This document shows, one piece after another, positions 10,414-57,066 of a DNA stretch of 64,000 bases (positions are counted from its first letter, which is position 1; each line of letters begins with the position of its first letter). The notes beneath the pieces are model-generated. The model searched no databases. It had not been told where the DNA came from and worked only from the letters and a program-made list of their open reading frames with translations. The stretch is taken from NCBI GenBank assembly GCA_965215235.1, contig OZ244053.1, forward strand, positions 1,953,649 through 2,017,648. Direction: 5' to 3'. The position numbers were made by a program, and so were the translations under genes. The stretch is from Terriglobia bacterium. Lineage in GTDB: Bacteria; Acidobacteriota; Terriglobia; Versatilivoradales; Versatilivoraceae.

Positions 10414-11020
10414 GCCGAAGCCCCAACTCACCGCTTTGCTCCGGCCTTGTGATTCTGATCGAACCGGAGGGCCGATTCCCACTTTTTGTCGACGGCGCCG
10501 GGCCTTCTTCGGTCCGAAGAGTGACCGCAATCCGCCGTGGGAGCGGATTTCAAGGCGATTCTTGTTAGGTGCTTGGCAGACTAGGGCTGGCCGGGACTTC
10601 CTATTGTATCGTTGCGACGGCCATCGCCCTCCCAGGGTCGTAAAACGCGCTCAAATCCAGAGAATCAACAAGGGCCACTGACGTGATGAGCCAGACCCGG
10701 ACTCATCGTGTGCGTGAATCACATTCGAACGGACCGTGCCATTCGCTCTTACCATATACGCCGCGAAGCTTATATCGGCAGCCGCACCGTCGGTCTGACC
10801 ATAATATGCCTGGAGCGGCGTCCTTCGCACAGGCCAAGCCGTCTCGAATTGCAGGGAGGAAAGGTCAAGCTTGGCGGATCGTGTGGCGAAACCACGCATT
10901 TCCATGCCGGCAACTTCGTTGGACTCGTTGAAATCAAGGCCCCCCAGGCGAAACCTTTTCCGTCTCGTGGCTCGTCGAGTCGAAAGTGTAGCGCATCAGC
11001 TTCCTTATTTACATGTAGGG

Positions 11021-11136
11021 ACCTCTGCATAACCGTTATTCCGGCGAAAGCCGGAATCCAGGAACGGTGAGTTTTCAGTAGGATAGCAGCGATAGCGCAT
11101 TGCCAAATTTCGCCTCGCCCGAGGAGTTATGCAGAG
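11021..11136. repeat. MITE-like element A: a 15-16 bp terminal inverted repeat (GACCTCTGCATAAC) flanking ~90 bp
   Basis: Left end gGGACCTCTGCATAACcg at 11019-11036. Right end AGTTATGCAGAGGTCtc at ~11121-11137, its exact reverse complement. The interior contains the hairpin TTCCGGCGAAAGCCGGAA. The same TIR recurs at 54660/54896. Confidence 0.5.
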
Positions 11137-11384
11137 GTCTCATGCAGTTTCACAGCCTGTCCTCAGGTTACGGTCAAAGTTTCTGAAATGATACTTCCGA
11201 CACGCTTGGCAGCCTCGACTGGGTGGTCGTCGACGAGATGTGCGCAGCACGCCGTGGTTCGATGTTGGCGGTGACCGAACAGCTTTCCGACCAAGGGCAG
11301 GTTCTCGCCGGACATCACGGCATGGCTGGCCACGGTGCAGCCTATTCGTATCTACTAAAATCCATGCGATTCACTATCTAAGTG

Positions 11385-11413
11385 TTGACGCCTGTCGATT
11401 GTCACTGTACACT
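11385..11413 (+). promoter_or_regulatory. Sigma70-like promoter candidate for higBA (TTGACG-N17-TACACT)
   Basis: TTGACG at 11385-11390, a 17-nt spacer, TACACT at 11408-11413, 6 nt before the higB GTG. This implies a leaderless or very short-leader transcript. Confidence 0.35.
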
Positions 11414-11419
11414 TGGAAA

Positions 11420-11698
11420 GTGATTAAATCGTTTCGTCATCCCGGCCTGAAACAGCTATATGAAGGTGAGCGATCTGCAAAGGTCTCGCAGAGCCATGTC
11501 GTGAAACTTAGGCGTATTCTGACCGCATTGGACCGAAGTAACGGTCCTGAAGGAATGGACCTTCCCGGCTTTCGATTGCATCCGCTCAAAGGCCGTATGA
11601 AAGGTCATCACGCGGTCTCCGTGTCGGGCAATTGGAGGGTGACATTTCGGTTCGAGAATGGGCACGCCGTAGATGCCAACTATCTGGACTATCATTAG
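11420..11698 (+). CDS. higB: HigB toxin (RelE/ParE superfamily, plasmid maintenance system killer family)
   Basis: VIKSFRHPGLKQLYEGERSAKVSQSHVVKLRRILTALDRSNGPEGMDLPGFRLHPLKGRMKGHHAVSVSGNWRVTFRFENGHAVDANYLDYH is a textbook HigB. GTG start at 11420. Confidence 0.8.
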   Translation: MIKSFRHPGLKQLYEGERSAKVSQSHVVKLRRILTALDRSNGPEGMDLPGFRLHPLKGRMKGHHAVSVSGNWRVTFRFENGHAVDANYLDYH

Positions 11699-11708
11699 GG
11701 GGGCCGAT

Positions 11709-11996
11709 ATGGTGATGAAAAATCCTGTGCATCCGGGCGCTATTGTGCGCGAAGACTGCCTGAAACCCTTGGGCTTGTCGATCTCCGAATGCGCAAAGAG
11801 ACTTGGCGTCGGGCGCCAAACGCTTTCCAACCTGGTGAATGAAAAGGCATCCGTTTCCATCGAAATGGCCTATCGGCTGTCGAAGGCGTTCGGCTCGACT
11901 CCCGAAACATGGCTTGGCATGCAGTTGGCGTTCGACCTTGCTCAATCGCGTGACCTAGAACGACAGATCAAGGTCAAACGCATCGTGGCTGCATAG
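11709..11996 (+). CDS. higA: HigA antitoxin (XRE-family HTH)
   Basis: MVMKNPVHPGAIVREDCLKPLGLSISECAKRLGVGRQTLSNLVNEKASVSIEMAYRLSKAFGSTPETWLGMQ carries the HigA HTH. GGGGGG RBS. It starts 11 nt after higB. Confidence 0.8.
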   Translation: MVMKNPVHPGAIVREDCLKPLGLSISECAKRLGVGRQTLSNLVNEKASVSIEMAYRLSKAFGSTPETWLGMQLAFDLAQSRDLERQIKVKRIVAA

Positions 11997-12103
11997 CACT
12001 CCCCACTTCAGAAAGACCAGGCTACGGCCGGGGGCCGGAACGTCGGACCATTCCCGCGCAAGGTACGGATGCCCTTTACCAAACTGATTCAACCATAACC
12101 TTC

Positions 12104-12409
12104 TCAAGAGGAATCTGGCCTCAGAGATCGTTCAACGTAATGGCGTTCATTGACGGCCGGACAGTGATTGATGAAGTAGGGAACGTTCTGCGCGCCCTGG
12201 GATTCAAGCACATCCATCTGAACCAGCGCTTCTTTCAAGTCTTCCGGGTCTGGTATGACCAGAATCAGAACGAAATCGACATATGGCGCAATCCATTTAT
12301 CAAGCTCTAGGCGGTTATCGGTGCTATCAATAGTGCACCGGCCGTCAGTGTTGACAGTCACGTTGACAAGCGTCTGTAGTTTTTCCGGTTCCCGTGCGTC
12401 GTAATACAT
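12104..12409 (-). CDS. Hypothetical 101-aa protein (no recognisable family)
   Basis: ATG-initiated ORF in the lower-GC patch next to higBA (MYYDAREPEKLQTLVNVTVNTDGRCTIDSTDNRLELDKW...). Codon usage is poorer than in neighbouring genes. Confidence 0.35.
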   Translation of the reverse strand: MYYDAREPEKLQTLVNVTVNTDGRCTIDSTDNRLELDKWIAPYVDFVLILVIPDPEDLKEALVQMDVLESQGAQNVPYFINHCPAVNERHYVERSLRPDSS

Positions 12410-12446
12410 GTAAGGCCGCCGTTCACTTTAAACGGGGGACGCGGAT

Positions 12447-12475
12447 TTGAGCGCCGGAAACCTTTCCGGTATACT
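12447..12475 (+). promoter_or_regulatory. Near-consensus sigma70 promoter upstream of nifS/iscS, with a palindromic spacer
   Basis: TTGAGC at 12447-12452, a 17-nt spacer, TATACT at 12470-12475. The spacer is a perfect inverted repeat, CCGGAAA cc TTTCCGG, a possible operator. It lies 78 bp upstream of the ATG at 12553. Confidence 0.4.
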
Positions 12476-12552
12476 ACGATTCATTGAGAGAAGACTCTCG
12501 AAGCGGCAACCGTCACCAATAGACGGGGACGGCCGAGGGTCGAGTCGAGGCC

Positions 12553-54659: not shown

Positions 54660-54896
54660 CACTTTGAGACCTCTGCATAACGCTACGTTTCGGGTCGATG
54701 GGTCATCAGAAGGATTTCAGACAGGTCTTCTGTCCCTTTTTCCCTGCTGTTTCGGTCATTTTTATCCTGTTCGAGGCCGATTTTCGCCCTTCAGGCACAG
54801 TTACCCCGAGCCATCTGGCTCGGCTACCCCACAACAGCGTTTGCAGGTGTGAAGGGACGTTCCCCAGCTGCCTTGGGTGGCAATTATGCAGAGGTC
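54660..54896. repeat. MITE-like element B with the same 15 bp TIR (GAGACCTCTGCATAA) as element A, ~205 bp interior
   Basis: Left end ttGAGACCTCTGCATAAcgc at 54658-54677. Right end caaTTATGCAGAGGTCTCac at 54877-54896. The interior differs from element A but is again hairpin-rich (CCCCGAGCCATCTGGCTCGG). Confidence 0.5.
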
Positions 54897-55375
54897 TCAC
54901 TTTATGACAAAATGGCCCCCCAACAGGTCATTCTGAGGAGCCCTTCGCCTTGGCTCAGGAACGAAGAATCTAAAGCCTACGCCTCAAACAACCTACCATT
55001 TTAGATGCTTCACTCCGCTTCGCTGCGTTCAGAATGACATAAGATGAAATGTCAACACTGCCTAATCTCCTACCCTTTTTTACTGACCTCAACCCAGCTT
55101 CTTGGGGATTTCCGGCCTTCTTTCCTGGGTTTTTGCGGAAGCCATTGTTAATCGCATGTGGAGCTATTTTTTAGCCGAGGGATTGTTGATCCCGTGGATG
55201 ACTTCGGAGCGTAGCCGAACCCTGTTTAGCCGAACCAACGTACCTTCGCCGTCGAGCCGCTAACCAATGACGTGGACAAGGCGCGCTGGTGGTATTGATG
55301 TACAATGACGGCGAGTACAGTTGCTGAGACGCCTTAGAGCCAAGCCATTCTCGTCCCTCAAGAGAGGAAAAGCAA

Positions 55376-57066
55376 TGCCAGAAACAATCGAAGCCAAAGA
55401 ACTGGAACTGAATGGCATTTTCAGCGATGCGTATCTTTTCAAGATACCTGAGTATCCGCGTCCATATGCTTGGGCAACTGAACAGGTTATGAATTATTGG
55501 ATGACCTAATCCATGCGATGGGCAAGGCCAAGAATATAAAGGAGATGCCACACTACTTCCTTGGAAGCATCGTCATTATCAGAGACTCTACCTCACTGTC
55601 GTACATAGTTGACGGACAACAGCGCATTACAACTCTCACTATATTCTGTTCTCTATATTCTGTATTCTGTTTTGTGCGTTGCGTGAACTTTCCAACGAGA
55701 GAGATCGGATCACGCTTGATAGGTATGTTCGTGAAAATAGCAATCCTTTCGCCGCTATAGAAGGGCGTTTTAGGCTCAGCGTTCGGGAGCGTGATAGAAG
55801 CTTCTTTCAAGGCAAAGTGCAGGAGATGGGTAAGTTGCCTGACTTTCTCAACCATCCTCCCGCGAACTTGCCTGACAGCCGGCAGCGGATGTTTGAAAAT
55901 GCCAAATGGCTATGGAAAAAATCTCTCGAAACTTGACGAAGAACAACGTAACAGACTTACGAGTTTTCTTGTTCAGCGTTGCTATCTTGTTGTCGTTCCA
56001 GCATCTGACCAGAGTTCCGCTTACCGCATTTTCGCTGTTATGAATGACAGGGGACTTGATTTGTCCCCTACAGACATTCTGAAAGCAGAGATAGTCGGAG
56101 CGATGGACGAGAGCATCCGCTCTCAATATACGGAAATAGGACAAGACATCGAGGAGAAGCTTGGACGCGATAATTTCAGGAACCTCTTTGCCCATATACG
56201 CATGATTTACATGAAAAACAAGATGGGCGTGGAACTCTACAAGAAGAGTTCAAAGAGGGGGTATTAAAGAAATAGAAGGGAAGGAGTTCATTGACGATGT
56301 TCTCATCCCTTTTTCCAATGCCTATAAATAGTAACCAGTACAGGTTACAAAAGCGTGGACGGCGGCGATAAAGTCAATCAGTACCTGGAACACTTGAGAA
56401 GGTTTGACAACTCTGATTGGATTCCACCTGCGATGGCGTTCTTCAATTGCAAGAAAATGACACGGATAAACTCTTCCGGTTTGTTCGTGATCTGAAACGA
56501 CTGGGCCTATGGAATGTTTATCAGGCGGGCGAATATTGACGACCGCATAAATCGGCATGCAGACGTCCTTCGCGCGATAGAGAAAGGCTGAGGAACTTTT
56601 TGGGGATACGGCGCCACTTCAGCTTTCGCCCCAGGAGAAAACGGAGATTCTGCAAAAATTGGAGGGCCCCATTTCGACGAGAGTAGCCAAGCCACTCCTG
56701 TTGCGACTCGACAGTCTATTGGCCGATGCTGGAGCGGCTCATGAGCATAAGATAATCACTGTTGAGCATGTGCGCCGGCGGAATCCAAAAGAGGATTTGG
56801 AATGGCTCATGGGGTTCCCTGATGAAGAAGAAAGAGCGCAATGGACACATAAATTTGCCAATCCTGTGTTGCTGTCCCGCTATAAGAATGCGAGTGCACA
56901 AAACTTCGACTTTGACCAAAAGAAGAAAAAATATTTCCAGGGAAAAAGTTCGCCTTTCGCCCTCACTTCGCGAGTATTGAATGAAGCGGAGTGGGATCCG
57001 AAAGTGCTGGAGCGACGACAGCGTGAGCTGATTGATGAATTGAAGAAAGAATGGCGTTTGGGCTGA
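55376..57066 (+). pseudogene. GmrSD-like type IV restriction endonuclease gene (DUF262 + DUF1524) broken into at least five frame segments
   Basis: Segments read, in order: MPETIEAKELELNGIFSDAYLFKIPEYPRPYAWATEQV; DDLIHAMG...YIVDGQQRITTLTIF (DGQQR motif); LRELSNERDRITLDRYV...; ...FAVMNDRGLDLSPTDILKAEI...; and ...TVEHVRRRNPKED...ANPVLLSRYKNASAQNFDF... (DUF1524 HNH-like). One join needs an extra T in aattaTTgg. The region is ~45% GC. Confidence 0.6.

Follow-up and report, generated by a model that had tools for sequence, protein, structure and literature searches.

Two probable MITEs with the ends of an ISAba23-including IS5-family clade in accessory DNA of a Terriglobia bacterium

Two short stretches of a Terriglobia genome share their ends but not their interiors, and both lie close to toxin-antitoxin or restriction genes. 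What kind of element are they and, if they are mobile, which transposase would move them? The question is addressed here for the window, i.e. the whole stretch of 64,000 nucleotides that was analysed, whose two elements are called A and B. The original prediction, made from the letters alone, considered them to be members of a non-autonomous MITE family mobilised in trans and left their terminal repeat without a known IS family.

Structure and setting of the two elements

Four arms of the window match GAGACCTCTGCATAAC with at most one mismatch and form two inverted pairs, whose common consensus, G(A/G)GACCTCTGCATAA(C/T), is a 16-bp inverted repeat (Table 1). When up to three mismatches are allowed, six matches are found in the window, whereas dinucleotide shuffles predict 0.52, and not one shuffle out of 100 reaches six. 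The 15-16 bp inverted repeat bounding about 90 bp at A is therefore present as originally described, and so is a second element with the same termini and another interior; the elements had been placed correctly, with bounds that were a few bases off and that are now given by the arms. No alignment was obtained between the interiors of A and B, and neither of them matches the rest of the window or the other copies of the family described below. A third arm-like site, GAGACCTTTGCAGATC, resembles an ISAba23-type end. It was judged to be a chance match since it lies within the coding sequence of higB and has neither a partner arm nor a duplication.

Direct duplications of 5 bp directly abut base 1 of each arm, with four of five positions identical at A and all five at B; the "ta/ta" target duplication proposed earlier for A was wrong. 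Both elements lack a transposase gene and fall within the size range of MITEs (about 50-600 bp). Their arms carry 0-1 mismatch, and the target duplication has the same length at both. Single-strand folds of A and B close on the terminal stem (z = -5.6 and -4.0, respectively). Hence, the description of A as "hairpin-rich" mostly reflects pairing of the terminal repeats, to which one strong hairpin with a perfect 8-bp stem and a GAAA loop is added. Scans of the window with Rfam (gathering thresholds) and for tRNAs found nothing, and promoter- and terminator-like sites around A and B are not more numerous than in shuffles. One promoter-like site (TTGTCA and CATAAT with 16 nt between them, 10/12) lies at the right end and flank of B and reads into the element.

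Table 1. Positions of the features in the window and in the other loci (L numbers) mentioned in the text
Feature	Sequence	Positions	Strand	Remark
Variable slot between Ldh_2 and cysteine desulfurase/MnmA genes	window	10414-12552		
A, left TSD copy	window	11013-11017		ATGTA; register is that of the family-wide duplication
MITE A	window	11018-11141		124 bp, without coding capacity; bounds from the arms; interior 92 bp
A, left terminal inverted repeat	window	11018-11033	+	GGGACCTCTGCATAAC; 1 mismatch to consensus, at position 2
A, internal hairpin module	window	11038-11057		ATTCCGGC-GAAA-GCCGGAAT; from the fold
A, right terminal inverted repeat	window	11126-11141	-	GAGACCTCTGCATAAC, read on the minus strand
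A, right TSD copy	window	11142-11146		ATGCA; 4/5 identical to the left copy
Short ORF beside A	window	11163-11345	-	ends 22 bp from A
Fragment resembling HP1 integrase C-terminal domain	window	11166-11345	-	
Third arm-like site	window	11472-11487	-	rejected as a chance match
B, left TSD copy	window	54661-54665		ACTTT
MITE B	window	54666-54898		233 bp, without coding capacity; bounds from the arms; interior 201 bp
B, left terminal inverted repeat	window	54666-54681	+	GAGACCTCTGCATAAC; from the arm search
B, right terminal inverted repeat	window	54883-54898	-	GAGACCTCTGCATAAT, read on the minus strand
Promoter-like site, right end and flank of B	window	54883-54910	-	
B, right TSD copy	window	54899-54903		ACTTT; exact, 5/5
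GmrSD-type restriction gene	window	55321-57066	+	at least four frames
Slot in syntenic loci of relatives	L239	11072-12986		
Slot in syntenic loci of relatives	L240	11072-16230		
Slot in syntenic loci of relatives	L242	11069-11632		
47-bp element	L045	6980-7026		
47-bp element	L060	6629-6675		
47-bp element	L068	463-509		
139-bp elements	L008, L029, L055, L093			
157-bp elements	L010, L052			
180-bp elements	L021, L029, L067			
202-205-bp elements	L016, L038, L053, L059			
Hairpin module sites	L020	4115-4790		
Hairpin module sites	L074	4767-5050		
Hairpin module sites	L114	5834-6545		
Hairpin module site	L081	about 5812		
Internally deleted element	L131	495-987		493 bp
Full-length copy	L132	1099-2272		
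Full-length copy	L154	136-1320		
Full-length copy	L226	25-1214		
Full-length copy	L152	5-1288		

The neighbours are those announced by the original prediction. A lies beside genes for HigB (PF05015, 5e-18) and an HTH_3 antitoxin, and B about 420 bp upstream of the first fragment of a GmrSD-type restriction gene, whose PF03235 pieces, followed by PF07510, are spread over a 2-kb stretch. This splitting over frames, in a stretch of low GC, identifies the gene as a pseudogene within acquired DNA. The lower GC content reported around both elements is clear beside B (0.47 at 55001-57000, against about 0.56 overall), whereas it is only slight at A (0.53).

The slot that houses A is a variable hotspot in the lineage. 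In the syntenic loci of relatives (Ldh_2 90% and 84% identical), the order Ldh_2, slot, cysteine desulfurase, MnmA is kept. The cargo consists of HigBA and A in the window, of MazEF in one relative, of MazEF and McrBC in another and of a lone HigA-like HTH gene (91% DNA identity to higA of the window) in a third. The terminal sequence is absent from all these syntenic loci, in which positions 10424-11705 of the window have no homologous counterpart (84-90% for the relatives compared) and in which, as they carry different cargo, no empty site for A was found. Therefore, A lies within lineage-specific accessory DNA that offers no clean empty site. In-silico excision of A or B restores no gene, which indicates that both insertions are intergenic. 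A and B thus look like neutral passengers in accessory DNA. Since the target duplications are A/T-rich, the link with toxin-antitoxin and defence genes would be more simply explained by insertion into the A/T-rich intergenic DNA of accessory islands.

The short ORF that ends close to A is similar to the very C-terminal end of tyrosine recombinases (LFGHRQHRTTACCAHL), with C-C where these enzymes usually have R-Y. Its resemblance to the C-terminal domain of HP1 integrase is weak (E = 0.19), and no Pfam family was detected even at E = 10. It may be a decayed integrase that marks an old island boundary.

A widespread MITE family and its autonomous copies

Copies of the terminus are not restricted to the window. 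The 15-mer GAGACCTCTGCATAA was found in at least 114 stretches of genomes (one genome per species) and in at least 120 stretches of metagenomes, which together make more than 230 stretches of genome and metagenome contigs. In these, the 15-mer bounds at least 93 MITE-sized inverted pairs of 47-304 bp (<450 bp apart) from many phyla. Among the 93 pairs listed, 57 are flanked by an exact 5-bp TSD and 15 more by a duplication that matches at four of five positions, for 1 match out of 107 in a control register shifted by 20 bp. The subset listed from genome contigs gives the same picture: an exact 5-bp TSD, in the register seen in the window, flanks 39 of 58 inverted pairs (47-301 bp apart), whereas none of the 58 matches once the register is shifted or a window of 6 bp is used, and no more than 2-3 match with 3-4 bp. 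The duplications of the family are A/T-rich, A being favoured at position 1 and T at position 5, and conservation is limited to positions 1-16 of the arms. Such 5-bp duplications in a fixed register, next to conserved ends, are the signature of DDE transposition with 5-bp staggered cuts.

The 15-bp terminus bounds MITEs in Pseudomonadota, "Deltaproteobacteria", Chlamydiota, Verrucomicrobiota, Cyanobacteriota and, with the window, Acidobacteriota. Many copies are present in an Oceanospirillales MAG, a Nitrincola MAG and a Cyanobacteriota MAG, and other hosts of the 15-mer include Nitrosomonas, Marinicella, Arenicella, "Deltaproteobacteria", Chlamydiales and Opitutia. A scan of viral contigs returned three single matches, which is the chance level; one of them (L003) is accompanied by a partial transposase fragment. 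The match in a Nitrospiraceae locus (L017) was rejected as an isolated chance match unrelated to the window.

Interiors vary from one genome to the other, from 47-bp elements that are barely more than two ends up to modular forms of 139-209 bp. As the 47-bp form consists essentially of two ends, sequence comparison suggests that the 16-bp ends may be sufficient. The Oceanospirillales and Nitrincola MAGs display a size series of 47, 65, 139, 157, 162, 180 and about 204 bp, in which discrete internal modules are added onto a common core.

The hairpin of A, ATTCC(C/G)GC-GAAA/TTTC-GC(C/G)GGAAT, is found again in unrelated genomes, inside elements of the family or close to them. It lies inside the arms or within about 50 bp of them at three loci (L020, L074 and L081), and at a fourth, L114, it forms an array located 38-577 bp from the arms. 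In an Alphaproteobacteria MAG, tandem arrays of this hairpin enlarge elements to 744-1029 bp, the two longer arm pairs concerned being those of L020 (1029 bp) and L074 (744 bp). Its translation gives the familiar spurious peptides IPAFAGMT, RHSRESGNP and VIPAKAGIQ. The module may be a small repeat in its own right, carried by these MITEs or targeting them.

The at least 114 loci from genome contigs yielded no transposase, either within longer arm pairs, beside 70 unpaired arms or as a multi-copy ORF; the search returned housekeeping genes, MITE-sized shared DNA and the hairpin-module arrays of L020 and L074. Full-length elements, the search for which had been proposed as a check, were found in metagenome contigs. 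Among the metagenome matches listed, they consist of arm pairs 1171-1211 bp apart with a single ORF of about 335 aa inside, and four of them are flanked by exact 5-bp TSDs (AAGTT for L125, GCCAT for L138, CGACA for L150 and AATAT for L170). The ORF carries PF05598 (DUF772, 2e-20) and PF01609 (DDE_Tnp_1, 5e-22) and scores 218.9 bits against the curated model NF033581 of NCBIfam, "IS5 family transposase", for a cutoff of 140. Members of the IS5 family are expected to measure about 1-1.5 kb and to have repeats starting with GA or GG (ISfinder), in agreement with the single ORF, the size and the short GAGACC... termini of these copies. The canonical IS5 group is listed with a 4-bp duplication. The 5-bp duplication of the copies described here, as reported for ISAba23, thus seems to depart from the IS5 type element but not from the family.

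The autonomous copies therefore share both repeats and TSD length with A and B, and the MITE reading of the original prediction is borne out by them as well as by the 5-bp duplications found throughout the family, which counts, besides the two copies of the window, over 90 paired ones from other genomes and from metagenomes. Furthermore, the terminal repeat that had been left unassigned can be attributed to the IS5 family, and within it to the clade of ISAba23.

The transposases bounded by these ends range from 100% down to 29% identity to the protein of L187. Hence, a nearly invariant 15-bp terminus is common to IS5-type transposases whose subclades are only 28-45% identical to each other. 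At E <= 1e-30, the transposase family comprises 1412 database clusters labelled only "IS5 family transposase". Most of them come from contigs of about 1.2 kb, as expected of a repeat at which assemblies break. Searches with six divergent transposases of the clade gave no match, either in the 64 kb of the window or in the syntenic loci of relatives (105 kb).

One element (L131) has the ends of the family and keeps residues 1-28 and about 265-328 of the transposase. It is an internal-deletion derivative, intermediate between IS and MITE, and shows a route to short derivatives by internal deletion. A and B may have arisen in this way or from two ends that captured the intervening DNA by chance. 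Several full-length copies (L132, L154, L226 and L152) have no TSD and have flanks that are alike, with ...TACCT or ACCTT on one side and TTATA on the other. This suggests either that they sit in a common larger repeat or that chimeric assembly of a multi-copy element produced these short contigs.

Known relatives and alternative explanations

Among annotated plasmids, the best transposase match (WP_191603771.1, 70% identity) is found at six places of a Marinomonas algicola plasmid (NZ_CP061942.1), within an element of 1195 bp whose ends are GAGACCTCAGCATAA and which provides an example from a cultured bacterium. This element and the unnamed IS5-family elements of L125, L132, L154, L170 and L187, which are all bounded by GAGACCTCTGCATAA, have termini identical to those of A and B or one base off and share their 5-bp duplications. 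Unlike A and B, they encode a transposase; outside the 16-bp ends they do not resemble A or B, and none of them lies in the window. They are the likely parents or mobilisers of A and B.

The next named element among annotated plasmids is ISAba23, whose transposase is 37% identical to the L187-type protein. This Acinetobacter element is a 1249-bp member of the IS5 family whose inverted repeats have 16 bp and whose target duplication has 5 bp (PMC4110982). Its ends on pIP1858, GAAACCTTTGCACGAA and GAGACCTTTGCACGAA, match the repeat of the window at 12 of 16 positions, with CACGAA instead of CATAAC in the inner third. Like the clade that shares its ends with A and B, ISAba23 combines a single DDE ORF (DUF772 and DDE_Tnp_1 type), a length of about 1.2 kb, a 16-bp inverted repeat and a 5-bp TSD, but it is an autonomous IS whereas A and B carry no gene. 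As the ends are shared and the architecture is that of a named element, A and B can be said to use the end signature of an IS5-family clade.

IS5 of E. coli resembles the autonomous partners by its single ORF and by the Pfam and NCBIfam type of its transposase. Its 16-bp repeat, GGAAGGTGCGAATAAG, starts with G and ends with ...ATAA(G/C), as here, but it generates 4-bp duplications at YTAR targets whereas the duplications of this clade are 5 bp long. The closest published analogue in kind is MITEAba12, a MITE of about 113 bp from Acinetobacter whose identity to its proposed parent, ISAba12, is confined to 16-bp repeats (PMC6382973). Its mobilisation in trans was deduced from shared repeats and duplication length, with A/T-rich targets (PMC6382973), and the same logic is followed here. 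However, MITEAba12 differs by its termini (GGCTTTGTTGCACAAA), its 9-bp duplication, its single conserved interior and its narrow host range (Moraxellaceae), whereas the termini of the window bound many unrelated interiors across several phyla. In the incompletely covered literature, full-text search found no paper with the terminal sequence and nothing specific on IS5 MITEs with 5-bp duplications or on MITEs of this clade. Hence, the family was rightly called previously unrecognised as far as its terminal sequence in print is concerned, but both the kind of element and the parent IS family are known.

Other identities have to be weighed against that of IS5-family MITEs. The boxes of integron attC sites have the consensus RYYYAAC...GTTRRRY (R''/R'), from which each of the inner ends of the repeat, GCATAAC...GTTATGC, departs at one position. 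As higBA is moreover a typical cassette and as the weak HP1-like fragment beside A could be the remnant of a tyrosine recombinase, A and B might be attC sites or the remnants of a degraded chromosomal integron. However, the inverted repeat runs 9 bp outward of the putative core boxes, the integrase-like fragment matches no Pfam family, and there is neither a cassette array, the copies being 43 kb apart, nor an intI gene. Furthermore, site-specific recombination makes no direct duplications such as those flanking the elements, and the same ends bound DDE transposase genes. These duplications and the autonomous IS5 copies effectively refute the integron explanation, which we regard as extremely unlikely. 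The A/T-rich 5-bp target duplications are also of the type made by Tn3-family transposons, from which miniature elements (TIMEs) are derived. Nevertheless, the Tn3-family repeat has about 38 bp (GGGG...TAAG), whereas the conserved terminus has 15-16 bp and starts with GAGACC. Elements of 47 bp, reduced to little more than two termini, exist, and the transposase of the full-length partners is of the IS5 type and has about 335 aa, unlike the Tn3 TnpA of about 1000 aa. The identity of the autonomous copies refutes a Tn3-family origin, to which we attach practically no credence.

Could A and B be immobile palindromes of the host with a local function, such as operators, REP-like repeats or terminators? 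The strong stem predicted on the 16-bp arms and the position beside toxin-antitoxin and defence genes would be compatible with such a function, but spacings of 92 and 201 bp between the arms are far too long for an operator. In addition, promoter- and terminator-like sites stay at the shuffle level, the syntenic loci of relatives are devoid of the elements, and the same arms are found in many phyla with unrelated interiors and 5-bp duplications. A local function is thus very improbable. REP and BIME sequences, imperfect palindromes of 20-40 bp that depend on a RAYT (Y1) transposase and make no duplication, were rejected since the family has 47-304 bp, duplications and a DDE partner. Lastly, A and B could be true MITEs that arrived with acquired islands and are dead relics, never mobile in this genome and with no cognate transposase. 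Both copies lie in accessory DNA that is absent from relatives or low in GC, no transposase of the clade is encoded in the window or in the corresponding loci of relatives, and A shows decay of its duplication as well as a mismatch in one of its termini. By contrast, the exact duplication and nearly perfect termini of B suggest a recent insertion, and two unrelated interiors within 64 kb suggest that more copies exist genome-wide. We consider the relic explanation possible, although somewhat unlikely.

Proposed mobilisation and its meaning

Taken together, A and B are very probably MITEs that carry the ends of the IS5-family clade including ISAba23 and on which a transposase encoded elsewhere would act in trans. 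According to this proposal, a full-length copy of about 1.2 kb located elsewhere would encode the DDE transposase (DUF772 and DDE_Tnp_1, about 335 aa). This enzyme would bind the two 16-bp repeats and excise the element together with its unrelated, non-coding filler. The element would then enter an A/T-rich target that is cut with a stagger of 5 bp, and repair of this cut would give rise to the 5-bp duplication. The predicted empty site of B is GATTCAAGACACTTTATGACAAAATGG. By analogy with known IS5-family DDE transposases, the chemistry would be of the cut-and-paste type. We infer that the transposase acts in trans on both elements and that its source was once present in this lineage. The exact duplication and near-perfect ends of B suggest that its insertion is recent, whereas A, with one end mismatch and a duplication conserved at four of five positions, looks older.

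More tentatively, the terminus may mark an uncatalogued, pan-bacterial IS5 subgroup defined by 16-bp inverted repeats and a 5-bp TSD, whose members would cross-mobilise a common pool of MITEs that serve as vehicles for structured modules. This wider reading is speculative and we hold it to be rather doubtful. If it were true, the fixed end would allow the transposase of any member to cross-mobilise shared MITEs, and these would carry small modules such as the ATTCC(C/G)GC-GAAA-GC(C/G)GGAAT hairpin.

A and B are ordinary mobile DNA that opens no new mechanism, and that a single 15-bp end occurs in several phyla and with transposases that have diverged deeply is of modest interest for IS classification. 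The main benefit is for annotation: A, B and many similar copies of environmental genomes can receive the label of IS5-family (ISAba23-like) MITEs, which averts spurious calls of small ORFs such as those giving "MQRS..." or "...VIPAKAGIQ" peptides. Moreover, the 15-bp end is a simple search key for further copies. In this Terriglobia bacterium, A and B mark insertion-prone accessory DNA beside toxin-antitoxin and restriction genes.
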